64,000 nucleotides of DNA from an uncultured Mycoplasmatota bacterium (GTDB lineage: Bacteria > Bacillota_I > Bacilli_A > RF39 > UBA660), in the NCBI GenBank assembly GCA_900546745.1, contig URDT01000003.1, positions 125-64,124 of the forward strand. Reading direction: 5' to 3'. Positions 20,694 through 44,959 of the stretch are shown piece after piece (the stretch's first letter is position 1; the number at the start of each line of letters is the position of its first letter). The notes under the pieces are model-generated. The model saw only the letters and a list, made by a program, of their open reading frames with translations, searched no databases and was not told the DNA's origin. Made by a program: the position numbers and the translations under genes.

Positions 20694-20696
20694 TAA

Positions 20697-23297: not shown

Positions 23298-23302
23298 CAT
23301 AA

Positions 23303-23331: not shown

Positions 23332-23523
23332 CATAGAAAGGGAGCACTATTCTGTGCTCATAAGGAGTAATTCTTTAAAAAGATTTACATTAATAGCTTG
23401 TCAGTATCTCAACTGACATTAATAGTTTACCACATTTTTCTTTTTATAGTTAAATTTTCACATTATTTTCATAAAAATATTGATTGAAGGCATTATTTTT
23501 TTTATAATGACTATGGTGGTAAT

Positions 23524-24990: not shown

Positions 24991-24999
24991 AAAAGACGA

Positions 25000-25686: not shown

Positions 25687-25841
25687 TATGTATCCCTCCG
25701 ATAATAATATTATTCTAACATTTTTTAAAACATTAATCAATGTAATAAAATAGATATTTTTTCATATGATATAGTGTATTATATTTTTAATACGTGGAAA
25801 TTTATAGTGCTATAAATTTCCTTTTTTGTTTTCTGAAAGTA

Positions 25842-25850
25842 TGGTATAAT
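25842..25850 (+). promoter_or_regulatory. extended -10 of the tRNA-Thr promoter
   Basis: TGgTATAAT ending 10 nt before the mature tRNA 5' end. Confidence 0.5.
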
Positions 25851-25860
25851 AAAAATACTT

Positions 25861-25934
25861 GCTGATATAGTATAAAGGTATTACGAGGCCATGGTAAGGC
25901 TTTAATCGGTGTTCAATTCACCGTATCAGCACCA
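25861..25934 (+). tRNA. tRNA-Thr (anticodon GGT)
   Basis: Hand fold: acceptor GCTGATA/TATCAGC, anticodon stem AGGCC/GGCTT with loop ATGGTAA, T-arm CGGTG-TTCAATT-CACCG, discriminator A, encoded CCA. Confidence 0.85.
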
Positions 25935-25980
25935 GATTGATAGGAAATTCGGACACATCCTGAGTTTAAGTAATAGATTA

Positions 25981-26005
25981 CTAACTAGAAATAGTTGGTT
26001 TTTTT
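25981..26005 (+). terminator. terminator supplied by the element for the tRNA-Thr transcript
   Basis: CTAACTA-GAAA-TAGTTGG hairpin followed by T7. Confidence 0.5.
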
Positions 26006-26038
26006 GTACTTAAATTTTGAAAGGATGAGTGATTATAT

Positions 26039-26311
26039 ATGTTAAATATTGAAACAAAAGAACTTATAATTAGTGAGAAATTAAAAAAGAAAGTTGATAT
26101 GATATGTAAGTTTGCTTGTGTTAAACCTACTTATCAAAATGGTAATGTAATTAATATAGTTAATTCTAATATCGCTTATGTTAAACCACATATAATAACT
26201 ATTAATAATATTAACTATTTAATGTTTGAAGAATGTGATGATATTTTTATAAATGGATTTTCTAAAAAAATTCAATTTAAAGATTTTGAACAATACATTA
26301 AATCAAACTAA
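26039..26311 (+). CDS. 90-aa element-end protein, paralog 1 (unknown function)
   Basis: Same length as the ORFs at 31026 and 42813 and alignable with them: IC-F, NG, Y-x-PH-I-I, Y-L-x-F, E-x-YIK. Confidence 0.7.
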   Translation: MLNIETKELIISEKLKKKVDMICKFACVKPTYQNGNVINIVNSNIAYVKPHIITINNINYLMFEECDDIFINGFSKKIQFKDFEQYIKSN

Positions 26312-26315
26312 CCTA

Positions 26316-26344
26316 TTGACTTTTAAATAAAAAATGATTATTAT
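26316..26344 (+). promoter_or_regulatory. promoter of the recombinase leader (copy 1)
   Basis: TTGACT-17 nt-TATTAT. The same motifs and spacing occur at 31302-31330. Confidence 0.6.
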
Positions 26345-26416
26345 AAATAACCAATAAATGACAAGCAGTATCCGTCTTTTATTAGAAAGCGAGGTACATC
26401 TATGGTCAAATACATA
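26339..26416 (+). repeat. 78-nt block 100 percent identical to 31325-31402
   Basis: Direct comparison of the two leaders. Covers the -10, a bulged hairpin, the SD and the first five uORF codons. Confidence 0.9.
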
Positions 26417-26479
26417 AATTATTTAAATAAAAATTATAAAGTTATTTCAAGAGGAGTCAAAGGTATTAGTTTGAACTAG
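26402..26479 (+). CDS. leader peptide uORF (25 codons), copy 1
   Basis: GAGGT SD 6 nt upstream. MVKYINYLNKNYKVISRGVKGISLN. Reads through the 5' arm of the terminator and stops 6 nt before the 3' arm. Confidence 0.55.
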   Translation: MVKYINYLNKNYKVISRGVKGISLN

Positions 26480-26501
26480 TGCTTTTGTCTCCTCTTTTTT
26501 T
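26449..26501 (+). terminator. intrinsic terminator / attenuator upstream of the serine recombinase (copy 1)
   Basis: AAGAGGAGTCAA ... TTGTCTCCTCTT (12 bp, one T.T mismatch) followed by a T-run, 22 nt before the recombinase ATG. Confidence 0.7.
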
Positions 26502-26508
26502 GATATGA

Positions 26509-28398
<1,890 letters not shown>

Positions 28399-28597
28399 TT
28401 TTGTTAACTTTTATCAAAAGTTATTTAACAAACGAACACGTTTTGTTGAAGTTCCTACTTCAATGAAAGTGAGTAAAGTTTGTTTAATAAATATAAATAA
28501 TAAATAGTATTTGTTATTTATATTTTAATAATTATCGAGGGACATTTTGTTTCTTTAGAAATAAAAGTTGCGATAGATAATTATTATAAAAAGGATT

Positions 28598-28670
28598 CTA
28601 AGGAATTATTCCTTAGCTCCCACATCTTGTTAGAATGACAAGATGTCTAGGGAGTTATACATCTTGACTA
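28598..28670 (+). promoter_or_regulatory. candidate oriT of the MobV relaxase
   Basis: Two inverted repeats (CTAAGGAAT-T-ATTCCTTAG; ACATCTTGT-TAGAATG-ACAAGATGT) and a repeated ACATCTTG directly upstream of mob. Nick site not identified. Confidence 0.4.
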
Positions 28671-28702
28671 GTAATTCAAGATACTTTTTAGGGAGGTATA
28701 AA

Positions 28703-30058
28703 ATGAACGAAAATCTATCTTATTCATTCCATATCGGTAATGATAAAAATAAAACTACAAAAGCAAAACAAGTATCAAAAGAAAGAACTATAAACTTTAA
28801 TAATAATGCTATTCAAAATGCTATACAATTATCAAAAGTAAATCATCATAACCTACGTGCATATGAAAATAATCCTGAACTAATAATGACTATTAAAGGA
28901 ACAAATGATATTGTTAAAGATATAAAAGAAGTATATATAGATGTGTTTGAAGAATCTAGAATTAACTACAATAATAAACAAACTCGTGATGATAGAAAAA
29001 TTCAAGATTATTTTTCTAAAATAGCAAATGATAATAGACATGATCTAGCAGTCGAAATTATTATTCAACTTGGTAATATGAATTATTGGGCTGATAAAAC
29101 TATAGAAGAAAAATATAAAATGACTGATGTATTTAAAAATCAAGTTAAAGAATTAGAAAAAATTGTTCCACTATTTAAGATAGCAAATGCTACTATACAC
29201 TTTGATGAATCTTCACCACACTTACATATAGTTGGTGTTCCAATAAAAGAAAATTGCAAAACCAGTATGAATAAACAAGTAGGAAAATCAGACGTGTTTA
29301 CTGTTGAAATATTGGAACTGATCCAAAATGAATTGAGAGAAAAATGTATAAATGATTTCAATAAATTATTTAATTTAGATAAAGAACTTAAAGAAAAAGA
29401 AAAAGGAAGAAATGAAGATTATAGAGTTAAACAAATGAATAATTATGAAAAATTAAAGGATTCATATAATAAGCAACATAAAAAGATAACTGAAATAAAT
29501 AAGAATGTTGATAAAATAAATAATAAATCAATCAAAGTAAAAGATATATTAGAAAATTTAAAACAACAACCCTTATCAAAAAATAACTTAATAATATCTT
29601 CTGATAAAAAAGATAAATTATTAGAATATATAAAAGATATTGATAAAAATAATAAAAATATGAAATCAATTACAAACTTTAATTTATCATTAAATGATAT
29701 AAAAAAAGATTTAGAAGAAAATCATGAAACCATTAGAGAATTATTAAACGAAAATGAAGATTTAAATGTTAAGTTAGAAGAAAAAGAAAGAATATTACAA
29801 GTATCAAAAAATACTATATCTGAATTAAAAAAGAAAATCTCTAATTTAGAAGAACAAGTTAATTATTGGAAGAATAAATTTACAAAAATTATAAGTCACA
29901 TTAAAGATAAAGTTCTTGGACTATTTGGAAAAGATGAAGAACACACATATAGAAATATAGCAAATGATTTATTTTTGAATAACAAAGTTTCTTATGAAGA
30001 TTACGAAAATATGTTGGGGAGAAATGTTAAAAACAAAGATGATGAACTTGATAGATAA
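28703..30058 (+). CDS. MobV / Pre family relaxase
   Basis: HFDESSPHLHIVGVP (HxDE..PHxH motif), long Lys/Glu/Asn coiled-coil C-terminus, GGGAGG RBS. Confidence 0.85.
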   Translation: MNENLSYSFHIGNDKNKTTKAKQVSKERTINFNNNAIQNAIQLSKVNHHNLRAYENNPELIMTIKGTNDIVKDIKEVYIDVFEESRINYNNKQTRDDRKIQDYFSKIANDNRHDLAVEIIIQLGNMNYWADKTIEEKYKMTDVFKNQVKELEKIVPLFKIANATIHFDESSPHLHIVGVPIKENCKTSMNKQVGKSDVFTVEILELIQNELREKCINDFNKLFNLDKELKEKEKGRNEDYRVKQMNNYEKLKDSYNKQHKKITEINKNVDKINNKSIKVKDILENLKQQPLSKNNLIISSDKKDKLLEYIKDIDKNNKNMKSITNFNLSLNDIKKDLEENHETIRELLNENEDLNVKLEEKERILQVSKNTISELKKKISNLEEQVNYWKNKFTKIISHIKDKVLGLFGKDEEHTYRNIANDLFLNNKVSYEDYENMLGRNVKNKDDELDR

Positions 30059-30140
30059 TTAACATTTTACAGAAAATTTGCAAATAATTATGAAATTTAA
30101 CGATTTTATGATATAATTCAATTGTACGGGAGGTATGAAA

Positions 30141-30767
30141 ATGGGAATACAAAATATTATAGAATTCTTTAATGGATTAGGAATTCAAATGTTAATAGAT
30201 GAAAACGGGAAAATGACTTTTATAGATACTAAATCTAATATAAAAATGAATGCTTTTTATACAAGAAATCCATTACCAATTTTAGGAAATGAAGATATGG
30301 ATTATGATATTAGTTTAGACAAGATTATGAGAGGTGGAAGAATAATTTCCAAATCAAGTGATTCTCATCTATCATTTAGAGTAACAAATCCAATTATAGA
30401 TAGAAAAAGAACTGATGATATAATAATTGATTATATGGAATATGCTACTGCCGAGAATGGTGTAGTAAATGAGGGTACAACTGTATCATTTGAAAACGGA
30501 AGAAATTCAAATGTTTCTATAGAAACAAATAATCAACAAGGTTATTCAAAATTAGTTATGTTCTCTGATGGACAAATAATGTTTTCAAAAGATGGAAAAG
30601 TTGGATATTATGATGAAGAATATGATTATTATCAATTAAGCGAACAAGAAATGAGAAATATATTAAGTAATAGTTCACTTGCTGTTTCATTATCTGATTA
30701 TTATTTGCCATTGTTTCCAAATATGAAAGAAAGTATTACAAATGCTTCAAAATCAAAATCTTTATAA
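30141..30767 (+). CDS. hypothetical cargo protein
   Basis: ORF behind a GGGAGG RBS with a terminator-like hairpin after it. No motif recognised. Confidence 0.55.
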   Translation: MGIQNIIEFFNGLGIQMLIDENGKMTFIDTKSNIKMNAFYTRNPLPILGNEDMDYDISLDKIMRGGRIISKSSDSHLSFRVTNPIIDRKRTDDIIIDYMEYATAENGVVNEGTTVSFENGRNSNVSIETNNQQGYSKLVMFSDGQIMFSKDGKVGYYDEEYDYYQLSEQEMRNILSNSSLAVSLSDYYLPLFPNMKESITNASKSKSL

Positions 30768-30814
30768 TAATTTAAGAGTAGTCTTACAATAGGCTACTTT
30801 TTTTATAAAAAGTA

Positions 30815-30843
30815 TTAACATTTTAAATTATGTATGTTAAAAT
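30815..30843 (+). promoter_or_regulatory. outward-facing promoter at the right end of element 1
   Basis: TTAACA-17 nt-TGtTAAAAT (extended -10), ending 6 nt before the conserved AGTTAGTAAG. Confidence 0.45.
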
Positions 30844-30849
30844 TAATTT

Positions 30850-30985
30850 AGTTAGTAAGTATTGCTTACTATCAACTTTTTGTCTAGAGGTTGTTCAACT
30901 ACAACCCCACAGGCACCATTGGCGAATCTGTTCGAACTATTCGAACTTTGATATATAGAATCAATCAGAAATGATTGATTTTTTC
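30850..30985 (+). ncRNA. candidate about 135-nt RNA spanning the attP-like junction (copy B)
   Basis: Lies between a promoter and a terminator. Hairpins AGTAAG/CTTACT, GGTTG/CAACC, GTTCGAA/TTCGAAC, and terminator AATCAATCA-GAAA-TGATTGATT plus T-run. Homologous unit at 42642-42778. Confidence 0.4.
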
Positions 30986-31025
30986 TTTTTATGAAAAAGT
31001 CAACCTAAAAGAAAGGTTGGTGTAT

Positions 31026-31298
31026 ATGATTAAAATTATTAAGGAAAAAATAGAAATTGAAGAATCATTAGAATCAAGATTAAAGATCATATGTGATTTT
31101 TGTAATACTACTCCAACAATAATAAACGGAAGTATTAGAAGAGTAGAACATACAAATCTTACTTATATTGAACCACATAGAATAATTATTAATGATAACT
31201 TATATCTTGCTTTTAATTACTCAAATGAAATATATATTAATAATTTAGGTAAGAAGATAAAACTATCTGAACTTGAAAACTATATAAAACAAGCGTAG
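31026..31298 (+). CDS. 90-aa element-end protein, paralog 2
   Basis: By my alignment, about three quarters identical to paralog 3 and about one third to paralog 1. Start at MIKIIKEK behind a GGTTGG RBS. Confidence 0.7.
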   Translation: MIKIIKEKIEIEESLESRLKIICDFCNTTPTIINGSIRRVEHTNLTYIEPHRIIINDNLYLAFNYSNEIYINNLGKKIKLSELENYIKQA

Positions 31299-31301
31299 GT
31301 C

Positions 31302-31330
31302 TTGACTTTTAAAATAAAAACTATTATTAT
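31302..31330 (+). promoter_or_regulatory. promoter of the recombinase leader (copy 2)
   Basis: TTGACT-17 nt-TATTAT. Confidence 0.6.
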
Positions 31331-31387
31331 AAATAACCAATAAATGACAAGCAGTATCCGTCTTTTATTAGAAAGCGAGGTACATCT

Positions 31388-31462
31388 ATGGTCAAATACA
31401 TATTTCATTTAAATAAAATTAATAATAGAAATATAAGAGGAGTCAAGAGTATTACTTGTTAA
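31388..31462 (+). CDS. leader peptide uORF (24 codons), copy 2
   Basis: Same SD and first five codons as copy 1. MVKYIFHLNKINNRNIRGVKSITC. Stop lies 6 nt before the terminator 3' arm. Confidence 0.55.
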   Translation: MVKYIFHLNKINNRNIRGVKSITC

Positions 31463-31484
31463 TGCTTTTGTCTCCTCTTTTTTC
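31435..31484 (+). terminator. intrinsic terminator / attenuator (copy 2)
   Basis: Arms identical to copy 1, loop 21 nt instead of 24, followed by a T-run. Confidence 0.7.
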
Positions 31485-31503
31485 GTAGAAAAAGGAGTGA
31501 TAA

Positions 31504-33442
<1,939 letters not shown>

Positions 33443-33444
<2 letters not shown>

Positions 33445-33583
33445 TAAAATACATAGTATATTTGGCGATAAAGATGATAAATATAAAGAAATGGCTGATA
33501 ATTTGTTTATAAATGGAATTATGGACGAAAAAGACTATACAAGTGTTATTAATAAAAAAAATCGTGATGATTTTGAGAGATAA
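33443..33583 (+). pseudogene. relic of a MobV relaxase C-terminus (46 codons)
   Basis: DKIHSIFGDKDDKYKEMADNLFINGIMDEKDYTSVINKKNRDDFER aligns with the last about 50 aa of the 28703 relaxase and of ORF 34831-35652. Confidence 0.6.
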
Positions 33584-33632
33584 AAGTATAAATTGTGTTA
33601 TAATTATTTTATAAGAAAGAGGTTGATTTTTA

Positions 33633-34868
33633 ATGATTAATTTGACAATAAATGACCTAACACAAGAAAATATTCTTGAACATCTTAATAAAACTGAAAA
33701 ATTATTAAGTAAAGTTGCAACTAAATTATCAAATAGTGAAAAAACCGCAACTATATATGCTATGCCAGATTTAGGAATAGCACAAAATGGAACTAGAATG
33801 ATAGGTGGTTTTTATACGGGTGCTTGTTATACCTGGAACAGTGATATTCCATTTATTCCTGTAGATGCAACTGTTAATGTTTGTGGAACAGCAGTTTATA
33901 AGTTAAATAAAAATATTACTAATGAAGAATTTATTGAAAGACTTAATAATGTTATGAATAATAGAAATACTTATTTAGATTTTGTAAATAAGTATTTACC
34001 TAAGGATGTTTTAAATTCAATTGATGTGAATGATGCTTCAAAATTTTTTTGGAATTATAACAAGGGTAATCATTTTGTAATCTTTGCTGAATCTGATGGG
34101 AAATATGGTTTAGAAGAAGGACAATATATGATTGTTCATGCTTCCGCAATAGAATTAAAAAAAGATAACTTAAAATATGGTTTATATCCTGTAAAAGGTA
34201 ACTGGTTTTATGATGATATAAAAACAGAATATGACGATGAGCATAAAAGATACATTAGATATATAACGGGAGAAAAAGCAAAGAAATTCTATGATATAGC
34301 AACGTATTTAAAGGAATTTAATAAAATACGGAATAAGTATTTTTGCCAAATTGTTTTAGGAGATTTAATGGAAAAAGAATTAATTAATATAAGCCATTAT
34401 GGTATGCCTACCATAAATTCGGTATGTATAGGTTGTCAATGGGAACAATTAGACTATACTCTTTTAACTGCACCTGGTAATGATGTGTTTTTAGTGCATC
34501 CTGAAATAAATCCAAATAATAAAAATTATATAAATTTACATGGTAAAAATATAACTTTAACACCGCATGGTTGCGGAGTAAGAATGAATAATCCAGAGGA
34601 TAAAATTGAATATTTTGATGGAGGACTAAGAATAGGTGACAATGTTTACATAATAGATGAAAGTGTAAATATAGGTGTAGATGTCTCTGTCAGAACAAAG
34701 AATATGACAAACGAAGAACTAGATAACCATATAAATAATATATTATCAAAATGTCCAGGAGAAATTTATGGACGATTAAGCCAAAAATTTGCAAGAACTA
34801 AATATGGTGATTTTAATTATAAAGAGGAATATGAAAATGCCAATAATAACATTTATAAGACACGCTGA
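33633..34868 (+). CDS. divergent RtcB-like protein (tentative)
   Basis: 411 aa with collinear RtcB-like motifs: AMPD, VDATVNVCGT, KGNHFVIF, MIVHAS, NISHYG, TPHGCGVR. Confidence 0.35.
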   Translation: MINLTINDLTQENILEHLNKTEKLLSKVATKLSNSEKTATIYAMPDLGIAQNGTRMIGGFYTGACYTWNSDIPFIPVDATVNVCGTAVYKLNKNITNEEFIERLNNVMNNRNTYLDFVNKYLPKDVLNSIDVNDASKFFWNYNKGNHFVIFAESDGKYGLEEGQYMIVHASAIELKKDNLKYGLYPVKGNWFYDDIKTEYDDEHKRYIRYITGEKAKKFYDIATYLKEFNKIRNKYFCQIVLGDLMEKELINISHYGMPTINSVCIGCQWEQLDYTLLTAPGNDVFLVHPEINPNNKNYINLHGKNITLTPHGCGVRMNNPEDKIEYFDGGLRIGDNVYIIDESVNIGVDVSVRTKNMTNEELDNHINNILSKCPGEIYGRLSQKFARTKYGDFNYKEEYENANNNIYKTR

Positions 34869-35652
34869 AACGGTTTATAATGATAATAAAATTTTTGCAG
34901 GTAGAATTGATTGCGAATTATCAAAAAAAGGAATACAAGATAAAATGAGAGTGTATTGTATTAATTCGTTCAATAGAATTTATCATTTAAACTACACTCT
35001 TAAAATAAAAGAAGAAGGAAGAAATGTTGATATTAATGTTGCAAATATGAATGAATATAAAAAGTTCAAACGAGAACAAGAAAAATATAAAAAGCAGCTT
35101 AAAGAATTAAATAATAAAACAGATGAATTACAGAATAAATCAAACGAAGTTAATGATATTATTGATAATCTAAAACCTACAATAATGAATAAAAACAACT
35201 TCAATATCTCTAATGAAGATATAGATAAAATTAAAAAATATATAGAACAGACTAATGATACTACTTCTAATTTAAGAGATGCAAATGATATAAATATAGT
35301 CTTAAAAAAATATGAAGATGATTTAAGAGAACATTCTAACGAAGTTAGAAACTTGAAAAAGAAGATAAAAACTCGTGATGATAGAATTGAAGAATTAGAA
35401 TATGACTTAAATGATGCAAATGAAACTATTGATGAATTAGAAGATAAAGTATCTAAATTAGAAGAAACATTAAAATATTTTAAAGAACTATGGAGCAAGT
35501 TTATTAAATTCTTACAAGATAAACTCTTCTATTCAAATAAGTATGATGATTTCATAAACGATTTATATAATGAAGATATAATTGATGATAGTGAGATAAA
35601 TATAATACAAAATAATTCTAAAAGTAAAGATGATTTTGAGAGAGATTTATAG
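34831..35652 (+). pseudogene. chimeric ORF: N-terminal about 35 aa of a histidine phosphatase fused to the C-terminal about 235 aa of a MobV relaxase
   Basis: MPIITFIRHAETVYN (RHxE motif) then, from about 34948, CINSFNRIYHLNYTLKIKEEGRNVD..., collinear with CINDFNKLFNLDKELKEKEKGRNED... of the intact relaxase. The relaxase catalytic domain is absent. Confidence 0.65.
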
Positions 35653-35726
35653 TAAACCATATCTAAATATAAGAAAATTTGTTATAATATTAATTAAGAA
35701 GAAAACTACTTATGGAGGTAATTAGT

Positions 35727-36215
35727 ATGGACTACAACATATCAAAAGCAAAAATAGAAGATCTAGATGCTATTCACAAATTAATATATGATAGCTGTTT
35801 ATGGTTTTCAGAAAAAGGAGTTAAATGATGGAATGTAGATTTCTACCCTAATAAATATGAAAAAAGTTATTTTATAGAGCAAATGAAAATAAATAAATTA
35901 TTTGTTGCAAAATTTAATAATAAAATATGTGGTGTTATGCTTTTAAAAGACAAAGATAAGGATTATTGGAATAATGATGATTCTTCTTATTATATTCATC
36001 ATTTAGCAACAGATATTAATTTAAAAGGTGTTGGCAAGACATTGATTAATTATGCAATTGAACAATGTAAAATAAATAATAAAATGTATTTAAGACTTGA
36101 TTGTTATCAAGAAAGTAAATTTCTTAATGAGCATTATGAGAAATTGGGCTTCAATATGGTTGGAAGTGGAACAGATGAAAATTATAATTTTAATTTATGG
36201 GAGATGAAAATATAA
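35727..36215 (+). pseudogene. GNAT acetyltransferase with an in-frame TGA at codon 34
   Basis: ATG at 35727 behind a GGAGG RBS, in frame with track ORF 35883-36215. TGA at 35826-35828 within ...SEKGVK*WNVDFYP. Confidence 0.65.
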
Positions 36216-36216
36216 T

Positions 36217-36783
36217 ATGAATACAATAGAATCAATAGAAAATAGAAGAAGTATTAGACTTTTTAAGAGTGATAATATCTCAAAAGAAATAGTTGAAGAT
36301 ATATTAAATTGTGGAAGGCTCGCTCCATCTGCAAAAAATAGACAACCATGGTATTTTGTAGTAACAAAAGGTAAAGTAAAAGATAAAATAGCAGATATGA
36401 TGATTGAGTATACTATAAATAATGATGATACCATTGAGAGAAAAAATTTAGGTTGTGCAAGTAGTGTTAATCCAACTGCAAATGTAATAAAACAAGCACC
36501 AATATTAGTTTTAATATTTAGAGAAAAAAACGATAATTGGATTATAGGAGATAATTTATCAATAGGTGCTTGTGTAGAAAATATGTGTTTAAGAGCAACA
36601 GAATTAGAAATAGGCACTTTATGGATTAGAGATACTGTATATGTTACAGAAGATGTGGCTAAAATGTTGAATCACGAAAATATGGAATTAAATTGCGCTT
36701 TAGCAATTGGATATGCAAATCAAAGTCCTAAACAAAGACCTAGAAAAGAATTAAAAGATATTGTGGAGTGGTATGATGAATAA
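36217..36783 (+). CDS. nitroreductase family protein
   Basis: RRSIRLF and APSAKNRQPW motifs. Confidence 0.8.
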   Translation: MNTIESIENRRSIRLFKSDNISKEIVEDILNCGRLAPSAKNRQPWYFVVTKGKVKDKIADMMIEYTINNDDTIERKNLGCASSVNPTANVIKQAPILVLIFREKNDNWIIGDNLSIGACVENMCLRATELEIGTLWIRDTVYVTEDVAKMLNHENMELNCALAIGYANQSPKQRPRKELKDIVEWYDE

Positions 36784-37666
36784 CAAAATATTAGATTTTT
36801 ACAAACAAACAAGTTTATATACAGATTTAGGATTATATAAAGAATTTGCTAAACAACTAACTAATGATATAGATGAGTTATGTGTACTTCAAAGAATGCA
36901 AATTATACATCCTATTGCATATAGTGATTTAGATATAAGAAAGCAAAGTAAATGTTTTTGGGGAGATATGACAAAGGTTCCAATTACAAGATTAGATTAT
37001 GAAGATGACTTGTTTCCTACTGCTTCAAGTATGTTGCATGAACTATTAAGAAAAAATAATGAATATCGTGTTGATAGAAAAGCAGAAGATAAAATTCATG
37101 TTACTTGTAGAGGTCAAGCAATATTATTAGCAAGTATATTAAAAGCAAAGGGATATTCTGCAAGAGTTAGAAGTGGATTTGCACCATATATCAAATATGA
37201 TGGTGTTAATTATGACCATTGGATTACTGAGTATTTTGATGAAAATAAGAATAGATGGGTTTTGGTAGATGCTGATGAACATTGTCCAGACCATGAAATG
37301 GGATTTGATTTAAACGATATACCAAGAGATAAATTTATTTTTGGCGCTGAAGCATATTTAGGAATGAGAAACAATAAGTATAAAACAGAAGAAATATATT
37401 ATGCTTCAGATCCTGCAACTTTAGGTTTAAAAGCAAGTATTCGTGGATTGTTTTACGATTTCCATTCGCTTATGAATGATGAAATAATATTTTTACATTT
37501 ACCAAAATATATTCAAGATAAAAAATTTGAGTTAAGTGAAGAAGAATATATAGAATTAGATAAATTGGCAGAATTATTATTAGAGCCAGATAAAAACTTT
37601 GATAAAATATTAGATATTTGGAATAAAGAACCTAAATTTAGAATAATGTCAGGTGCCTTAAACTAA
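36773..37666 (+). CDS. transglutaminase-like (Cys-His-Asp) domain protein
   Basis: TCRGQAILLASILKAKGYSARVRSGF (Cys), YDHWITEYF (His), WVLVDAD (Asp). Confidence 0.65.
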   Translation: MMNNKILDFYKQTSLYTDLGLYKEFAKQLTNDIDELCVLQRMQIIHPIAYSDLDIRKQSKCFWGDMTKVPITRLDYEDDLFPTASSMLHELLRKNNEYRVDRKAEDKIHVTCRGQAILLASILKAKGYSARVRSGFAPYIKYDGVNYDHWITEYFDENKNRWVLVDADEHCPDHEMGFDLNDIPRDKFIFGAEAYLGMRNNKYKTEEIYYASDPATLGLKASIRGLFYDFHSLMNDEIIFLHLPKYIQDKKFELSEEEYIELDKLAELLLEPDKNFDKILDIWNKEPKFRIMSGALN

Positions 37667-38408
37667 TAATTTTTGATAAAATGTATTTGATTATTTATAA
37701 AAGTAGCATGAATTTATTGCTGCTTTTTTCATATTTTGCTAAACTATATGTAGTGATTGATTCTTATATCAATTATTGTATTAAAAGTTGTAGATAACTA
37801 TGACAATAGCACCAAATTGATACTAAACTCCAACTACAAAAGTTCGAGCTTCTAAATACCTAAATTTATGATACAATATTTCTAAATTTGAATGGTGGTT
37901 ATGGTAATGAAATTATTAGGAGAAGATTTAGAAAGGATAAATTTCTTATACAAAAATTTATTAGAGTTATTAAAACAAAAATTTATACTAAATAATAATT
38001 TAAATCTTAAAAATGCTTTAGAATTTATTAATTACTTTTAAAACTACTTTATTACTTCTAGAAGGATATTACTGAGACATAGTGTCATATTTTAATACTA
38101 AATCATGTTATACTAAGAAAGTAGTATTGTTTTTGAAATCTAATTGAATAATCAATTACAATGTGATACTATGAATTTTGATATTCATCGTGAAAATAGA
38201 AGAGTTTAGGTTCTATTTATAAGATTACTTTTATAGAAGAAAATCTTTATCTGAATATGAGTAAGATAAAGTAAAAATAAAAAAATATAATCAGAATTTA
38301 AGAATAGATAATTATTCTACTTTTTTCATCGGAAAGTAGTTTTATATACTTGTATATGATTAAGTAAATAGAATAATTTTAAAAAAAGTAGTAAGACCTT
38401 TTTAAATA

Positions 38409-39176
38409 TTATTTTTTTAAAATTTTTATTTTATTATTTGTAGATAAATTTTTTGCTATAAAAGAATAAAAACTATCTTCTTCTAAGTTTCCTAAATTGT
38501 AATGATCCATATCTATGTAGCTACCGTCACCTTGTGTTGTAATGTCACCTTTTGAAGTGATATAAAAATAATTGAAAAATAAATAAGAATTGGAATCTAA
38601 TTTTTCTATTTCGATAGTTTTATTTTCAAAATTAAAGTATTTTCCAAAATAAAAATTTTCTTTTGCTTTACCACTAAGAATGATTTCATCTTCTAATTCA
38701 TCTAGCGTACCTGTTTTTTGAAAATTAATTTTGTCAGAGAGATATTTATATTTTTCTATTATTTTGGGATCATAATTATGAAACTGATCATTGGAAAATA
38801 TGATTCCAACAGAATTACTAATATCATTACTTTGATATAACTCGGGAAATTTTTTAAGACAATACTCTTGGTACTTTAAAAGATTGGAGATTAATTTCTC
38901 ATCATATATTGTTGCATTTGTATTGAATCCAATTGAAAAAACAAAAAGATTTTCTTCTATAATTTTATTGATGGCATATATAATTGCTTGAGTGTTGAGT
39001 AATGGCTCTCCACCACTGAAAAAGAGTTTATAGATATAATGATTACACTTTAATAATAAATCGATGTATCTATAATCAATATCAATATTTTGACAATCTC
39101 CTCGCATACAATGTTTACAGTTTAAATTACAACGTCTTGTGACTTCAATAGTAATATTTTTTAAAATTATGTTCAT
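38409..39176 (-). CDS. short radical SAM protein (no SPASM or auxiliary-cluster Cys motifs seen)
   Basis: CNLNCKHC (CxxxCxxC) near the N-terminus and FFSGGEPLL. Start at MNIILKN behind an AAGAGG RBS. Confidence 0.75.
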   Translation of the reverse strand: MNIILKNITIEVTRRCNLNCKHCMRGDCQNIDIDYRYIDLLLKCNHYIYKLFFSGGEPLLNTQAIIYAINKIIEENLFVFSIGFNTNATIYDEKLISNLLKYQEYCLKKFPELYQSNDISNSVGIIFSNDQFHNYDPKIIEKYKYLSDKINFQKTGTLDELEDEIILSGKAKENFYFGKYFNFENKTIEIEKLDSNSYLFFNYFYITSKGDITTQGDGSYIDMDHYNLGNLEEDSFYSFIAKNLSTNNKIKILKK

Positions 39177-39390
39177 ATTAAAACCTCTTTGGTTATGATA
39201 ACAAAAACAAGACATAAAATCAATTGTAGATAATTAATTTATAGTGACTTTATAGTTAAAAATTGATATAATGAACACATAGATAATCATATAAATAATA
39301 ATTTAAATAATAATTAACTTTTAATAAAGTTTCAATTGTTTAAGAGGTAAAATTATTTATTATGGGATAATAAAAGAGGAGATTACAAAT

Positions 39391-40203
39391 ATGAAAGATT
39401 GTCATGTACACACAAATATCAGTCACGATGGAATATCATCAATAAAAGATTATTTAGATATTGCTCAATCTAAAAATGTAGATGAGATAACATTTACAGA
39501 ACATTATGATATATATGATGGATTAAAAACAAATCTAAAAACGTTAGATGTGAATCAATATGAAAAAGAATATTATCAGTGTAAAGATGATGATCAGTTA
39601 AAAACTAATTTTGGTATCGAAATTGGATTACAACCTGATACTTACACTCAAATTAACAATATGGTAAAATCTCATCATTTCGATTTTATAATTGGTTCAT
39701 CTCATATTACTTGTAAAAAGGATATTGCTATGGATAAAAGTTTTTTTGATGGTATTACAAGGAGAGAAGCATATTTAAAATATTTTAGAGAAGTTTTACA
39801 AAATATAAAATTATATAATGATGAATTTGATGTTTATGGACATATCGATTATATAGTAAGATATGGTGGATATGCTGAAAAGAAAATAGATTATGATGAA
39901 TTTCAAGAAATATTGGATGAAATTTTAATTCAATTAATAAAAAAAGATAAAGGAATAGAAATAAATACCTCAGGTATTAGATACGGATTAGGAATGCCTC
40001 ATCCAAATAAAGAAATTATCAAAAGATATAAACAATTAGGAGGAAAAATTATTACAATGGGCTCTGATGCTCATAAAATTAATGATTTAGGAGCAGACTT
40101 TGATGTCGCAGGTTCTATTTTAATGGATGCCGGTTTTCAAGAAATATCAGTATTTCATAATAGAACTCCTGATTTTGTTAAAATAAAAGAACTTGTTAAG
40201 TAA
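39391..40203 (+). CDS. PHP-family histidinol-phosphatase-like protein (HisJ type)
   Basis: CHVHTNISHDG N-terminal HxH motif, later His/Asp motifs (GSSH, GHIDY, GSDAH), about 270 aa. Confidence 0.75.
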   Translation: MKDCHVHTNISHDGISSIKDYLDIAQSKNVDEITFTEHYDIYDGLKTNLKTLDVNQYEKEYYQCKDDDQLKTNFGIEIGLQPDTYTQINNMVKSHHFDFIIGSSHITCKKDIAMDKSFFDGITRREAYLKYFREVLQNIKLYNDEFDVYGHIDYIVRYGGYAEKKIDYDEFQEILDEILIQLIKKDKGIEINTSGIRYGLGMPHPNKEIIKRYKQLGGKIITMGSDAHKINDLGADFDVAGSILMDAGFQEISVFHNRTPDFVKIKELVK

Positions 40204-40295
40204 AAAATTAGTATAGGTCTAACTAAATATTCAAATTCTGTCTAAAACATATTTGAAATATTTTGAATACGATATATAATGTGTTAGGTGGTTAT

Positions 40296-40787
40296 ATGAA
40301 TCAAAAATTAAATTTTGAAAAGGCAGAAATTAGGGATTTAGATGAAATATTAAACTTATATTTAGAAAGATCCAATTGGTTTAAGGAAAATCAGATTAAA
40401 CAATGGAGCAATTATTTGAAAAGTCATCCTGTAGCCGATTTTGAAAAAGCAATTCGTACACAAAATTATTATGTTATGCGTGATCATGGAACGATTATAG
40501 CTGGGTTTGAACTATCAACAGATAGTAAACTTTGGAAAGAGAAATCAGAAGATGTTTACTATATTCGTAAAGTCGTTACAAAAGTAGGATATAAAAATAT
40601 AGGTTCTCTTATTTTTGATAAATGTAAGGAAATTGCTGCATCAAATAATAAACATTATTTAAGATTAGAGTGTATCAAATCCAACAACAAATTAAATGAA
40701 ATTTATGAAAATTATAATTTTAAGTGGATTCGTTATTGTAATGATGGATTATGCCATTTTTCATTACGAGAATTAAAGATTAATTAG
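40296..40787 (+). CDS. GNAT family N-acetyltransferase
   Basis: RKVVTKVGYKNIGSLIFDKCKEIA acetyl-CoA-binding-like segment. Similar N-terminus to the 35727 GNAT. Confidence 0.7.
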   Translation: MNQKLNFEKAEIRDLDEILNLYLERSNWFKENQIKQWSNYLKSHPVADFEKAIRTQNYYVMRDHGTIIAGFELSTDSKLWKEKSEDVYYIRKVVTKVGYKNIGSLIFDKCKEIAASNNKHYLRLECIKSNNKLNEIYENYNFKWIRYCNDGLCHFSLRELKIN

Positions 40788-40814
40788 TAAAAAATTATCG
40801 TAAGTAATTATAAA

Positions 40815-41595
40815 TTGAAAAAAGTAAGTGTCCGTTTAGGACATAAAAAAGACACATAGATTTACCTATGGTACAATGTAAGTGCGAACTAAACATTGGA
40901 GGTGATAAATATGTGTCTTTTAAATTATAACAAAGAAAACAAAAAATATAAACATTTAACTTATACAGAAAGAACAATGATAGAAAGATGGTATAACAGA
41001 GAACATTTGAGTAGTAAAGAAATTGCCCAAAGATTAGATAAAAGTGAGAGGACTATTAGAAGAGAGCTTAAGCGTGGTCTAACAACTATTTTAAATACTT
41101 ATTTAGAAGAAATAGAGGAAGTGTGCTTTTGACTTTTACAGAAAGAATGACACGAGAAGAAATAATTATAAAAATAAAAGGAAAAAATAATGAGTATGTA
41201 GTCAAAGCAATAAATGGTCTTGAAAGAAAACATGAAAAGTCATTTTATAGTAAATTTAAAACAATAACATTTGATAATGGAGTGGAATTTATGGATTATA
41301 AAGGAATTGAACAATCTTGTTTAAAAAAAGGAAAAAGAACAAAAGTATATTATGCACATCCATATTGTTCAGGAGAAAGAGGTAGTAATGAAAATAACAA
41401 TAGAATGATTAGAAGATGGATTCCAAAAGGAACGATAATAGATAATATAACAACTAAACATATTAAAGAGATAGAGAATTGGTTAAATAATTATCCAAGA
41501 GCGATGTTTGATTATAAAAGTTCAAATATGTTATTATATAAATATATAAAAAACTTGCATTTTAGGTAATGAAATGTGTGGACACTTAATATTTC
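40815..41595 (+). mobile_element. IS30-family element relic with an internal deletion
   Basis: Terminal inverted repeat core TAAGTGTCC (40825-40833 and complement of 41580-41588). Encloses transposase fragments only. Confidence 0.6.
40911..41569 (+). pseudogene. IS30 transposase fragments (HTH N-terminus plus C-terminal part of the DDE domain)
   Basis: LTYTERTMIERWY...SERTIRRELKRG (HTH), then TFDNGVEF and ERGSNENNNRMIRRWIPKG. The region holding the first catalytic Asp is missing. Two overlapping frames. Confidence 0.7.
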
Positions 41596-41688
41596 CATTT
41601 ATATTTTTAATTATTTAAACTAATAACTATTGAAAAAAATATAAAAAAAGAGTATTATAATAAACTAACTAAAAAGGAGTGAAAAAAT

Positions 41689-42588
41689 ATGATTATACCA
41701 CAAGGATATGAATACAATCATGATAAAGAAATATCTAATGAAGAATATGAAGTAATTAATAAATTTTTAGAATTTTATAGAAATAAACCTGTTATTGTTG
41801 CTGATGAATATAGGCAAGATTTTGATATGGTTCCATTAGAAGAAGAAAAAATAATTTTTAAAACTGATGATGATGTATTCAAATGTGTCGATTTTTGTAG
41901 AAAAATTTATTATAAAAATAAACCTTATATAATAGAATTAGGATTATGGCGTATAAGTCATAATGAAACAGAGCCAAAATGTTTACAAATTAATAAGTTT
42001 AAAATTATTACTAAAGGTAAAGTTCATTTCATTGATTTGAATTTAGATAATTGTTCAAATAGAAGAATTCTATTTAATATTATGAGTATTTTTGATGAAA
42101 CGAAGATAATTTCTCCAGAACAGGCTTATTGTAACAAAATGTATACAAACAAAGTATTACAAGATTTTTTAACAAATCATGAGTGGGAAAATATTGATAA
42201 AGGAATTCAACAAATGCCTTCATTAGCGAATGCTTTATTTATTATAAGAGATGGATATGAAACATGCAGTCATTACACAGCGGATTTTGCTACAATATTG
42301 TATCAATTAATTGATTTTAGAACACATAATTTAGGTAGTTTAATTAAGGATGAAAAAGATTTAAATGAGTTAGATAAATTAATATTAAAATTAAGTAGAA
42401 CAAGTTTATTGAAGGTCCAATTACATGAACAAACAAGTGGGATTAAATCTTATCCAACTAGATCAATATTATTAGATTATAATTATTATGACGGAAGGAT
42501 GCATAAATCAACGCAATATAATGTAGATAATACAGAATTATCAACTGAAAATGGTATTTTGAAAAAACTAGTTAAAAATAATAAATGA
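41689..42588 (+). CDS. hypothetical cargo protein
   Basis: 299-aa ORF behind an AAGGAG RBS. No motif recognised. Confidence 0.55.
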   Translation: MIIPQGYEYNHDKEISNEEYEVINKFLEFYRNKPVIVADEYRQDFDMVPLEEEKIIFKTDDDVFKCVDFCRKIYYKNKPYIIELGLWRISHNETEPKCLQINKFKIITKGKVHFIDLNLDNCSNRRILFNIMSIFDETKIISPEQAYCNKMYTNKVLQDFLTNHEWENIDKGIQQMPSLANALFIIRDGYETCSHYTADFATILYQLIDFRTHNLGSLIKDEKDLNELDKLILKLSRTSLLKVQLHEQTSGIKSYPTRSILLDYNYYDGRMHKSTQYNVDNTELSTENGILKKLVKNNK

Positions 42589-42606
42589 AAATTGTGGTAA
42601 TATATA

Positions 42607-42635
42607 TTGCTACTTTTTTTATGTTCTAGTATAAT
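42607..42635 (+). promoter_or_regulatory. outward-facing promoter at the right end of element 2
   Basis: TTGCTA-17 nt-TATAAT, ending 6 nt before the conserved AGTTAGTAAG, the same spacing as copy B. Confidence 0.45.
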
Positions 42636-42641
42636 GTAATT

Positions 42642-42778
42642 AGTTAGTAAGTTTATTACTTACTATCATCTTTTTGCTTAGGAGTTGTTTGACCTGCTCC
42701 TTACTGGCACCATTGACGAATCTGTTCGAACTATTCGAGTTTTTATATATGAATCAATCATTTCTGATTGATTTTTTT
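42642..42778 (+). ncRNA. candidate about 135-nt RNA spanning the attP-like junction (copy C)
   Basis: Hairpins AGTAAG/CTTACT, AGGAG/CTCCT, GTTCGAA/TTCGAG, and terminator AATCAATCA-TTTC-TGATTGATT plus T-run. Confidence 0.4.
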
Positions 42779-42812
42779 GTTGTATTAGAAAAATCATAGA
42801 AAGGATTTGTCT

Positions 42813-43085
42813 ATGGTAAATATTATTAAAGAAGAAATTGAAATTGAAGAATCTTTAGAATCGATGTTAAGAGTAATATGTGATTTTTGTAATACTATTC
42901 CAATAATAATAAATGGAAGTATTAGAAGAATTGATAAAACTAATCTTATTTATATAGAACTACATAGAATATATATTAAAAACAATTTATATCTATCATT
43001 TAATTATTCAAGTGATATATACGTTAATAACCTAGGTAAGGAGATTAAATTATCAGAACTTGAAGATTATATAAAACAAGCATAG
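42813..43085 (+). CDS. 90-aa element-end protein, paralog 3
   Basis: MVNIIKEEIEIEESLESMLRVICDFCNT..., 90 aa, close homolog of paralog 2. Confidence 0.7.
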   Translation: MVNIIKEEIEIEESLESMLRVICDFCNTIPIIINGSIRRIDKTNLIYIELHRIYIKNNLYLSFNYSSDIYVNNLGKEIKLSELEDYIKQA

Positions 43086-44452
43086 TTTGAGTTCCGGTAA
43101 AATTTAATAAGGAACTAAAAAAAGATGAAATTGTGGAAAACTCTTTCATCTTTTTGCTTTAAAAATAATGTAAAACGTCTTCAATGTTTAGTATAATATA
43201 GTTGTAAAAGAATAATAGTAAACAAAAAATTTGGAGGTATTCTACACGAATAATTTTACTACGAATACATATGAAATGAAAAGCGATATTTTAAAATTTA
43301 GTGAAAAAATTACAGAAGGATTAGATAAACCTACTACTAAGTTTGTATCAGAAATGATTTATGGTATTGAAAGATCTAATAGTATATTATTTAGTGAAAT
43401 TGCTAGAGCTTTAAAGGAAAGAATCAAGTTAAAAAATACAATAGAAAGACTTTGTAATAATTGTAATGAATCATCTGATGAAGAACTTAATATTATTAAA
43501 GAAAACTATTTTAATATTGCTTTAAAACAATTATCAGATGATGAAATAATCTTAATTGAAGACGATTCTGATGTCAATAAGGAATACAGTAATAAATTAG
43601 AAGATTTATGTACTGTAAGAGATGCTAGTAGTAAACAAGAAAAATATGTTAATGGTTATCATGTATGTGAAATTGTTGGTTTATCAAAAAATGAATATCA
43701 GCCAATTAGTTTATATTCAAAAATATATTCTACTGAAAGTAAAAAATTTAAAAGTTGTCCAAATGAGACTATAAAATCAGAAAAATATGTTATAGATAAA
43801 ATAAGGGAAAATAGAAATTCAAAAAATATTGTAGTTAAAGATAGAGACTATGATTCATTCGAATTATTTAAGTCAACAATAGATAACGATGTATCATTTA
43901 TTGTTAGATTAGATGACAATAGGAATTTATTATTCAAAGGAAAAAAGAAATTAGTTAGTGAAGTTGCCTCAAGTAGAAAAGGAAAAATACATACAAAACT
44001 TATGTATAAAGGATATAATACAGATTGTTATATTTCTTATACAACAGTACAATTACCTAAAATAAAAGATAAAGATTTAAATTTAGTAATTATATATAGA
44101 AAAAATGAATAAAAAATTACTTGTTATTAAGATTATTGAAGCGAGTGAATCTCTTAAGAGTAAAGCATTAGTTTGGTATGGACAGATATCAAAGGGAATA
44201 TCTAAAATACTAGAACATGCCAATACTGGTATAAAAGATTGGTTTAAAATAGAAGTTGAAGATAAATATAAGCAATTATCACTAAAACTGTAGACATATT
44301 AAAATATATTATATTAAAAAAACAACATATAAAAATGTTGAATTTTAAGCATACAATAAAATAGTAAAAGACATGAAAAATAAAATATTTTATTAAAAAA
44401 ATTAAAACAAATCAAAATATACTAATTTTTTTGTAAAATACCGAAACTCAAA
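43086..44452 (+). mobile_element. insertion sequence (family unresolved), about 1.37 kb
   Basis: Terminal inverted repeats TTTGAGTTCCGGTA (43086-43099) and, reverse-complemented, TTTGAGTTTCGGTA (44439-44452), matching 13 of 14. Encloses a transposase-like ORF. Confidence 0.55.
43231..44293 (+). pseudogene. putative transposase, apparently frameshifted (293-aa plus 62-aa ORFs)
   Basis: The N-terminal segment KFVSEMIYGIERSNSILFSEIARAL recalls IS4-like transposases. The frames switch in an A-run near 44100. True start uncertain. Confidence 0.35.
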
Positions 44453-44516
44453 TCGATTATAATCTTGTAAAAAAATTTTAATTATGATATGATGATTGTG
44501 TTAATTGTTTTTATAT

Positions 44517-44593
44517 GACCTGTTGGTGAAGTGGCTTAACACGCTGCCCTCTCAAGGCAGTATTCGTGGGTTCGAAACCCATACAGGTTACCA
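44517..44593 (+). tRNA. tRNA-Glu (anticodon CTC)
   Basis: Hand fold: acceptor GACCTGT/ACAGGTT (G1.U72), anticodon stem CTGCC/GGCAG with loop CTCTCAA, T-arm GTGGG-TTCGAAA-CCCAT, ACCA end. Overall close to Firmicute tRNA-Glu apart from C34. Confidence 0.75.
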
Positions 44594-44604
44594 AATTGAC
44601 ATTG

Positions 44605-44627
44605 ACCGTTGAAATTCAACGGTTTTT
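44605..44627 (+). terminator. tRNA-Glu terminator
   Basis: ACCGTTGAA-A-TTCAACGGT hairpin followed by a T-run. Confidence 0.75.
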
Positions 44628-44959
44628 ATTTTTATTGGTCTTGTTTTTGGTCTAGCTTATTGAAAATATCAACTAAAATATTTTGTGAATTAGGGTACAA
44701 ATGCAATAATTGATTTGTTAAGGGAATATCCAAGAGATGAAATTCAAACTATACTCAAGTTTCTAAATAATAGATCAAAAATGCATTAATTATCAAATAT
44801 TTCAAGAATTATTCAATTAGCATTTATATGAATGCTACATTTGATTTGGCAAATTATCGATTAAAATAAAATTTTTTTGTAAAATATTATTTTTTTATGC
44901 TTTATAAAAAGGAAATCACTAAGTTTTATCGAATAATAATAGTAGAAAGGAGATGAAAA

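Follow-up and report, generated by a model that had tools for sequence, protein, structure and literature searches.

A review of integrative mobilizable elements (IMEs) assigns tRNA 3′ ends to tyrosine integrases and places the IMEs of serine recombinases at sites inside genes (PMC5704250). Integration of a serine recombinase element into a tRNA gene "is rare" (PMC3218068, Ghinet et al. 2011), and the nearest analogue of the locus treated here is found in the ssrA islands of Dehalococcoides (McMurdie et al. 2011, PMC3146451). Here, we analyze a stretch of 64,000 nt, hereafter the window, from an uncultured Mycoplasmatota bacterium (RF39; UBA660), corresponding to positions 125–64,124 of the forward strand of contig URDT01000003.1 (GCA_900546745.1). 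Directly downstream of its tRNA-Thr(GGU) gene lies what is, judging from sequence comparison, very probably a tandem array of IMEs and remnants of them, formed as elements integrated repeatedly at the terminal CCA of that gene by means of their own large serine recombinase (LSR). The initial annotation of the window regarded a serine recombinase at tRNA 3′ ends as unusual, in agreement with both PMC5704250 and PMC3218068.

The ssrA islands and the present elements are both mobilizable, carry a serine recombinase next to attL, and use a tRNA-like RNA gene (transfer-messenger RNA, tmRNA) as a site. Tandem accretion is also common to both, including islands without an integration module. The ssrA islands, however, have ssrA as their single target, insert in the T-loop, and show a 20-bp direct repeat (PMC3146451). 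They encode two recombinases, the CcrB-like DsiB and the small DsiA, and have a six-gene module on the reverse strand. In contrast, the present elements have one LSR, many tRNA targets in addition to tmRNA, a junction after A76, 4–6 bp of identity, and no duplicated gene fragment. The staphylococcal cassette chromosome (SCC), with its recombinases CcrAB or CcrC, likewise sits at the 3′ end of a housekeeping gene (rlmH/orfX) without inactivating it, forms tandem composite arrays, and leaves the occupied site a target (established knowledge, with PMC3146451). SCC differs in its one protein-coding target and in its paired recombinases, which are absent here; the Ccr models score 89–137 bits on the present LSR against cut-offs of 700–900.

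The integrase ORF14 of the Ralstonia phage phiRSM (PMC3816273) is also a serine recombinase with a tRNA gene 3′ end as its site. It differs as a small enzyme of the resolvase/invertase type with one target, tRNA-Ser(UCG), and a 13-nt identical core inside the tRNA 3′ end; the carrier is a filamentous phage and not a mobilizable element, and no arrays have been reported. The actinomycete integrative and conjugative elements (AICEs) of Mycobacterium combine a large-type serine recombinase, found via PF07508, with tRNA gene integration, but all eight occupy the same tRNA-Leu gene, they are actinobacterial conjugative elements, and neither generic CCA-end targeting nor T-loop mimicry has been described for them (PMC3218068). 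Tn4451 and Tn4453 of clostridia resemble the first element of our array as small IMEs with one LSR (TnpX) and a Mob/Pre-type relaxase (TnpZ). TnpX has no known directionality factor and exchanges strands at 2-bp identity; Tn4451 differs from the present elements in that it selects its targets with low specificity, and tRNA ends are not among them (PMC5704250). Of TnpX, just the catalytic domain matches the present LSR, and weakly (PDB 2mhc, E 7e-6). Islands of tyrosine integrases at tRNA and tmRNA 3′ ends make the same target choice, preserve the tRNA, and form tandem arrays. In those systems the crossover lies inside the tRNA body, a copy of the displaced 3′ part of the tRNA has to be carried along, and the resulting direct repeats span tens of bp. 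A tyrosine integrase lineage is usually tied to one tRNA, and the enzyme family and its chemistry are unrelated to those of serine recombinases.

A multi-targeting LSR clade was delimited by Durrant et al. (2022) through 90% clusters found in more than three targets, typically with DUF4368. In operational terms the present LSRs are multi-target, with 90% clusters that occupy four to six RNA genes, and no DUF4368 hit was found in Pfam; their targets share one defined site type and do not reflect relaxed specificity. tRNA is not mentioned in that large survey (PMC10083194). Serine recombinases at single tRNA or tmRNA genes are already known from the ssrA islands, phiRSM, and the Mycobacterium AICEs. 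In a literature coverage that was incomplete, we found no description of a serine integrase lineage with CCA-end insertion at many different tRNA genes.

Structure of the Array

The tRNA-Thr(GGU) gene (ARAGORN; Rfam tRNA, 58.6 bits) spans 25861–25934 on the plus strand and encodes its CCA. Its 3′ end reads ATCAGCACCA, with the last base at 25934, and forms the B arm of the leftmost junction (attL), with the core GCACCA at 25929–25934. The array follows on the plus strand in the order tRNA-Thr, element 1 (25935–30918, 4,984 bp), segment 2a (30919–37814, 6,896 bp), segment 2b (37815–42712, 4,898 bp), and a stub (42713 to about 44450). There are four junctions, each consisting of GCACCA and an element left end. 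The limits of element 1, which is apparently intact, were given by blastn breakpoints with a 6-bp GCACCA overlap and by the junction sequence.

The initial annotation had placed a module of a 90-amino-acid (aa) open reading frame (ORF), a leader, and an LSR directly after tRNA-Thr, and ARAGORN, Rfam, repeat comparison, and Pfam bear this out. The restarts of this module that it gave at 30919 and 42713 are also evident in the sequence. GGCACCA stands directly in front of each, TTGRCGAATCTGTTCGAACTATTCGA and a hairpin terminator with a T-run come behind it, and the two junction regions form a 97-nt repeat of 79% identity. A further junction, 37814/37815, had been missed and was found by motif search; it reads ...GTTGTAGATAACTATGACAATAGCACCA/AATTGATACTAAACTCCAAC, where the slash marks the junction (with longer left context, ...ACAATAGCACCA/AATTGATACTAAACTCCAAC). 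Instead of three elements there are four segments, the former element 2 being two of them. A near-identical left end was correctly noted for 30919 and 42713, which share the TTGRCGAATCTG type (type 2; TTGGCGAATCTGTTCGAAC in segment 2a and TTGACGAATCTGTTCGAAC in the stub, each with a terminator). The DNA directly after tRNA-Thr, GATTGATAGGAAATTCGGAC, is a separate and commoner type (type 1). Segment 2b begins with AATTGATACTAAACTCCAAC, a degenerate type-1 left end.

The stub has neither a recombinase nor a right-end (P) arm, and its right limit is uncertain, at or before 44450, a deletion endpoint in one variant (L092, below). The first conserved chromosomal gene right of the array is tRNA-Glu(CUC) at 44517–44593 on the plus strand (ARAGORN, Rfam), which lies outside the elements. 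No right-end arm is present before this gene, as had been recognized, and a 293-aa ORF of the stub is a truncated IS4/IS701-like transposase.

Strain Variants

Strain variants of the array were retrieved via contigs encoding the exact flanking proteins (the 488-aa left-flank neighbor; a 246-aa reading of the left-flank gene had no record). These assemblies are independent, and their flanks are 99.5–100% identical to the window. Four of them (L090, L094, L095, and L097) match up to 25934 and again from 30913 in blastn, with a 6-bp overlap of GCACCA, and exactly element 1 is absent. Another (L002) matches 19176–25934 and 42707–52450, again with a 6-bp overlap, and lacks exactly 25935–42706. There, tRNA-Thr...GCACCA runs straight into TTGACGAATCTG, and the stub is the sole occupant. 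Flank identity around these two indels is 99.5–99.8%. In L088, L093, and L096, the element-2 body stands behind a third left-end variant, TAGGGAAATCCGCTCGAAC. L091 carries another element first (broken LSR, relaxase, and ADP-ribosylglycohydrolase), then a P arm ending in GTCGGCACCA, and then element 2. Five different right-hand partners are joined to the same ATCAGCACCA, and this holds in every variant. Because the variants differ at the junctions and are all joined at this one tRNA end, they argue for accretion rather than a fixed block. Repeated integration of related elements into one site, as first proposed, is supported by these junction-delimited modules in assemblies that encode the identical left-flank protein; no single conserved block was seen. 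Together with the multiple target sites described below, the presence/absence variants suggest that the elements are mobile.

A remnant array in L092 carries an ordinary deletion that joins window position 40808 to 44451 (L092 14990–15010); it starts within segment 2b and stops a short way upstream of the tRNA-Glu promoter. The array decays by nonspecific deletion as well, and this endpoint marks about 44451 as conserved chromosomal DNA.

We considered whether the region could be one composite island from a single acquisition, with the strain differences produced later by homologous recombination or deletion between the repeated modules. The modules share stretches of 73–85% identity that are able to support recombination, the element-2 body behind a different left end looks like module shuffling, and the L092 deletion is unrelated to the junctions. 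The element-1 and 25935–42706 indels, however, break exactly at the 6-bp GCACCA and not inside the longer homologous stretches, and L091 has a different element with other cargo in the first position, joined at the same base. Nor can a single acquisition account for the presence of the family at 16 tRNA species and tmRNA in other genomes. The composite island is for these reasons quite improbable.

That the tandem order is an assembly artifact, a collapse or chaining of related elements that really lie at different tRNA genes, is extremely improbable. The data are all short-read metagenome assemblies, and the elements share repeats of 100–280 nt, which gives the idea some basis. Nevertheless, the window arrangement recurs in three contigs and the arrangement with element 2 first in at least six independent assemblies (ENA, NCBI, and Logan). 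Arrays are found on long contigs too, such as that of L013, and the junction sequences differ from each other, hence they are not collapsed copies.

RNA-Gene Targets of the Recombinase Family

To survey the family, an alignment of the LSR and its metagenomic homologues was used to scan one genome per species. This yielded 248 stretches encoding relatives, of which 80 loci were kept. The hosts are nearly all metagenome-assembled genomes of uncultured Bacilli, "Tenericutes," or Erysipelotrichaceae from animal guts, and the LSR homologues are 59–98% identical. Several contigs that carry these elements of about 25% GC are labeled Muribaculaceae, Saccharimonas, Roseburia, or Oribacterium (L008, L025, L020, L055, L053, and L058), labels that probably reflect metagenome binning errors and not the true host range.

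In about 50 of the loci, the LSR lies 419–634 bp downstream of a plus-strand tRNA 3′ end, and in every one of these the element left end starts one base past A76. Named genomes gave 15 target isoacceptors: Thr(GGU, CGU), His, Gly(GCC, UCC), Cys, Leu(UAG, CAA), Ala, Lys(CUU, UUU), Phe, Trp, and Arg(CCU, ACG). A metagenome scan added Ser(GCU) as the 16th and recovered Trp again. Seven further loci have tmRNA as the target, and in them the 3′ end called by ARAGORN coincides with the junction coordinate. Arrays with two to four recombinase copies occur in L013 (on a 1.19-Mb contig), L022, L024, L038, L052, and L083.

Closely related enzymes are found at different RNA genes. One LSR cluster of at least 95% identity occupies Ala, Leu(UAG), Leu(CAA), Gly, and tmRNA (five RNA genes), and another occupies Thr(GGU), Thr(CGU), Phe, and Leu(UAG). 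A nearly identical 4.9-kb element is present at Leu(UAG), Leu(CAA), and Ala. Since one enzyme cluster or element occurs at several RNA genes, the site is the CCA end of tRNA-type genes generally and not tRNA-Thr specifically.

Attachment Arms

For the arm profiles, all arms were registered on A76. The tRNA arms carry the universal T-loop motif GTTCgAtTC from –23. On the element side, the type-1 left-end arm P′ (25935–26005, plus strand; GATTGATAGGAAATTCGGAC) contains an inverted T-loop-like motif, a first hairpin, and a terminator hairpin with a T-run at about 25981–26005. The family left-end consensus, from 36 distinct arms, is gATTGATAGGAAACTCGAAC. In reverse complement, P′ reads GTTCGAGTTTCCTATCAATc in type 1, with G at +20, and AGTTCGAACAGATTc in type 2, with G at +19. 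With GTTCGA at –23 and inverted in P′, the junction between tRNA and element is a GTTCGA dyad centered on C74/C75.

The P′ terminator (about 25981–26005) is predicted to be what now ends the tRNA-Thr transcript. The first hairpin after CCA (25948–25966, with equivalents in about 60 left ends) is distinct from this terminator and holds a conserved CTCGAAC motif in its 5′ half. Its stem varies by paired changes (CTCGAAC/CGAG, CTCGGAC/TCCGAG, CTCTAAC/TAGAG, and CTCACAC/GTGTGAG).

The right-end arm (P arm) of element 1 (30815–30918, plus strand) begins with a promoter-like TTAACA-17-TAAAAT with TG (30815–30843). A unit of about 73 nt follows (30846–30918), comprising hairpin A and a minihelix resembling an acceptor/T-arm, with GGCACCA at its end and a predicted RNA fold of –18.5 kcal/mol (z –3.1). 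Right ends were seen at internal junctions and at about 20 terminal P/B′ junctions; they fall into several classes, all ending in GC(A/T)CCA. Segment 2a ends in a class-2 P arm (37745–37814, last bases AGCACCA) and segment 2b in a class-1 P arm (42618–42712, last bases GGCACCA). Class-1 P arms have a conserved extended –10 box, TGnTATAAT, 6–7 nt before TTAGTTAGTA, and a conserved RGTTRTT motif at –29 to –23. Their predicted fold is one hairpin and an acceptor/T-arm-like minihelix with a free CCA tail, with z of –2 to –3.1 in four of five. RNAalifold on 26 class-1 arms supported hairpin A alone, with no compensatory changes, and the pseudo-T-arm hairpins lie in differing registers. The P arms of the window (30815–30918, 42618–42712, and 37745–37814) and of many other loci thus look like small transcription units. 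One possible role would be to restore expression or processing for genes that lie beyond the interrupted tRNA. The B′ side beyond the array has no common motif; in most cases it consists of the terminator native to the tRNA or of the tRNA gene that comes next.

One further right end deserves mention. In L072, positions 17373–17419 are an exact 47-nt duplicate of the 3′ part of tRNA-Arg(CCU), from the anticodon loop to CCA, and form the right-end arm of an element of 8 kb that has integrated at this same tRNA. This may show how pseudo-tRNA arms originate.

The arms also bear on which activity makes the junctions. Insertion next to CCA could instead be the work of some other activity, such as the MobV relaxase at a nic-like site, an enzyme of the host, or an RNA- or primer-linked use of the tRNA 3′ end, with the LSR serving as a resolvase or invertase. 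The association of the recombinase with the junctions is drawn from sequence, the B′ side has no recognizable half-site, and the P arm has a transcribed, tRNA-like appearance that might point to an RNA-linked process. We nevertheless regard a different activity as highly improbable. The recombinase has the full architecture of a large serine integrase with a long C-terminal region, and its distance and orientation to the junction are fixed in about 50 loci. The T-loop motif of the tRNA is mirrored in both arms of the element, a pattern that protein half-sites would be expected to show. The 4,984-bp element 1 contains no reverse transcriptase or second recombinase, and L102 keeps the same junction type with no obvious relaxase-sized gene after the recombinase.

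Position of the Crossover

The identity common to recombining partners is N73-CCA only, often GCNCCA (4–6 bp). Native discriminators persist at the occupied genes (C in His, G in Trp and Ser, and T in Gly and Cys). At Ala, tmRNA, Lys, Phe, Cys, and Arg, the gene retains its own base 71 and the P arm its G71. The base that follows A76 is not the same on the two sides of an element. The base-71 and post-A76 differences, together with the retained discriminators, place the exchange within C72–A76.

N73 is concordant at neighboring junctions of an array (A/A in 36, T/T in about 11, and A/T in none), and LSR clusters keep to one N73. P arms that are otherwise identical differ at N73 according to the array (L041 versus L025 and L032), and N73 is the sole difference between the E1-type P arm of L098 and that of the window. 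This pattern suggests that N73 lies in or next to the crossover dinucleotide. Our best guess for that dinucleotide is N73–C74, a call with about an even chance of being right. Pattern searches for the right ends of His- and Trp-type elements were too noisy, and a metagenome scan for C73/G73 junctions gave six real junctions with right ends in unknown classes.

Two occupied tRNAs have an unusual discriminator, tRNA-Gly(UCC) with A73 (L025 9350–9423) and tRNA-Leu(UAG) with C73 (L099 8540–8624). These are called noncanonical by comparison with the other loci and from general knowledge of identity elements. Integration might sometimes rewrite N73, or variant tRNA copies might be preferred as targets.

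Proposed Integration Mechanism

We propose that the elements' own LSR would catalyze integration at the 3′-terminal CCA. The attB would be generic, formed by the 3′ portion of whichever tRNA or tmRNA gene has an encoded CCA, and one half-site would comprise the T-loop motif that is universal at the DNA level (G53-T-T-C-G/A-A) together with the 3′ strand of the acceptor and CCA. The attP would mirror it, with inverted GTTCGA at +19/+20 in the left arm P′ and a pseudo-tRNA 3′ half ending in GC(A/T)CCA as the right arm P. Strand exchange would take place in C72–A76, the likeliest position being a dinucleotide with the discriminator N73 in it or next to it. The tRNA would be left entirely intact with no tRNA fragment duplicated, P′ would give it a new terminator, and the P arm would carry an outward promoter. 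An excised circle of element 1 would join its P and P′ arms as ...CCCCACAGGCACCA/GATTGATAGG... The tRNA/P′ junction would still offer the tRNA half-site after integration, and further elements could enter there. Retention of this half-site at an occupied junction would account for accretion and for arrays with internal P/P′ hybrid junctions.

Several observations weigh against this mechanism. Neither of the two forms to which the initial annotation pointed was recovered. A truly empty tRNA-Thr site (B/B′) was not found in the related assemblies of the host species, and no circular or attP form was found, with no terminal overlaps in contigs shorter than 12 kb. The exact element-1 recombinase was found just in this strain's own context. 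The B′ side has no conserved motif, an atypical state for the attB of an LSR, to which a dimer binds. Recombination of attP with attL is not carried out by canonical serine integrases, and accretion requires that reaction of the present family, as in SCC elements. The discriminator rule has exceptions in L010 (His C73 versus P-arm T73) and L081, both of C/T only; they could reflect a crossover at CC or CA, or else a transition mismatch that is tolerated. Because the loci lack phylogenetic independence, the concordance counts overstate the support. Finally, the comparative data are all metagenome assemblies, in which related tandem copies can misassemble, although the same junctions recur in independent assemblies.

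Genes and Cargo of the Elements

The coding content of element 1 is just the 90-aa ORF, the LSR, a Mob_Pre relaxase, and a 210-aa ORF, with no conjugation genes in 4,984 bp. Its own LSR and relaxase, combined with the absence of mating-pore genes, mark it as an apparently intact IME, and its transfer would probably proceed through the MobV relaxase.

The LSR (26524–28398, plus strand) is an intact protein of 624 aa and the sole recombinase of element 1. Pfam detected Resolvase PF00239 (1.1e-34, residues 10–155) and Recombinase PF07508 (1.9e-19, residues 177–263); Zn_ribbon_recom PF13408 (residues 276–314) had E 1.2e-4 and 22.8 bits, just below the 25.3 cut-off. R13, S15, the RVS motif, C283, C286, C308, and C311 are invariant in an 11-sequence alignment, and a long C-terminal region is also present. 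The best PDB match was the catalytic domain of TP901-1 integrase (3.8e-21), and identity to phage or plasmid integrases is at most 30%. The NCBIfam scores for Ccr and XisF were far below the cut-offs (CcrB 137/900, CcrA 89/700, CcrC 94/900, and XisF 148/375 bits). By its domain matches the enzyme belongs to the large serine recombinase family, within an uncharacterized clade from uncultured low-GC gut Bacilli.

The recombinase leader (26312–26523, plus strand) has a promoter-like site (26316–26344), a 25-codon ORF (26402–26479), and an intrinsic terminator (26458–26497). A second copy in the window spans 31299–31506. Positions 26299–26471 and 31285–31457 are 85% identical, whereas the adjoining coding DNA is 73–77% identical. 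The 25-codon ORF encodes MVKYINYLNKNYKVISRGVKGISLN, and its stop codon falls inside the long terminator, for which RNAalifold on 22 leaders found 10 pairs with compensatory changes. An antisense promoter-like site (26460→26433) matches 11 of 12 and is the strongest such site in the region. This layout resembles attenuation or countertranscript control and suggests that integrase expression may be regulated in such a way. An Rfam scan of 24000–47000 at E ≤ 1 matched just the two tRNAs, with no T-box or riboswitch in the leader and nothing at the junctions. A T-box-like UGGU/NCCA pairing in the leader was dropped; the UGGU is the ATG-GTC of the leader ORF and is not kept in other leaders. Pairing of the conserved leader loop AAGCAGTATC with P-arm hairpin A was found in one P-arm class only and was judged to be chance.

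The 90-aa ORF (26039–26311, plus strand; further copies at 31026–31298 and 42813–43085) has 242 homologues, none of them named, and its family occurs in these elements alone. AlphaFold2 modeled the protein with high confidence (pLDDT 94.7), yet the model had no significant fold match in the PDB, and the sequence fell into none of the Pfam, NCBIfam, PADLOC, or PHROG families. The protein is a candidate accessory or directionality factor. The MobV-type (Mob_Pre) relaxase (28643–30058, plus strand) matched Pfam Mob_Pre PF01076 at 7.5e-12, above the cut-off, and NCBIfam MobV at 1.1e-3, below the cut-off. The initial annotation of element 1 was right about the recombinase and this relaxase. Its oriT-like repeats in the intergenic region upstream of the relaxase (28399–28642) are just AT-rich inverted repeats; this putative oriT region has no recognizable nic site, and an oriT was not identified. 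The 210-aa ORF (30135–30767, plus strand) had no Pfam, NCBIfam, PADLOC, or PHROG match.

Segment 2a contains an ORF at 31026–31298, the leader, a broken recombinase (31507–32292 and 32341–33444), GNAT and nitroreductase genes, and a 287-aa ORF at 34789–35652. The latter has a short histidine-phosphatase-like N-terminus and a coiled-coil region that repeats the C-terminal part of the element-1 relaxase (29492–29564 versus 35104–35176, 74% identical), and represents a decayed relaxase remnant. Segment 2b is without a recombinase and carries a radical SAM gene (38409–39215, minus strand), PHP, GNAT, IS30-like fragments, and a 299-aa ORF. The radical SAM protein weakly matched a prokaryotic viperin model (PADLOC pVip, E 5.7e-7) and may be defense cargo or show just generic radical SAM similarity. 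The stub contains an ORF at 42813–43085, the truncated transposase (43231–44112), and a 62-aa ORF.

Significance

A serine recombinase lineage able to use practically every tRNA or tmRNA gene at its CCA end would represent convergence with tyrosine integrases on the same safe harbor through other chemistry. This mode of integration would leave the tRNA untouched, need just 4–6 bp of identity, and bring its own terminator and outward promoter. It suggests a route to an enzyme that is precise yet multi-target, namely, reading features common to a whole gene class. It would also explain a hotspot of strain variation in abundant uncultured gut Bacilli and suggests that LSR surveys keyed to disrupted protein genes may have missed the present class. 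Serine integrases are genome engineering tools, and target choice in this clade may hinge on one attP base.

We tentatively put forward a more specific proposal, which is possible but doubtful at present. The LSR clade would be a generic tRNA-gene integrase that reads the T-loop motif and CCA, with N73 in the crossover dinucleotide, and the P arm would be an expressed mimic of a tRNA minihelix with its own promoter. If this is true, a single base in the pseudo-tRNA arm would set the tRNA class that is entered (A73, U73, and so on), making the enzyme a naturally re-addressable serine integrase. The P-arm mimic would in addition restore transcription and processing of genes downstream of the interrupted tRNA operon or feed back on integrase expression.

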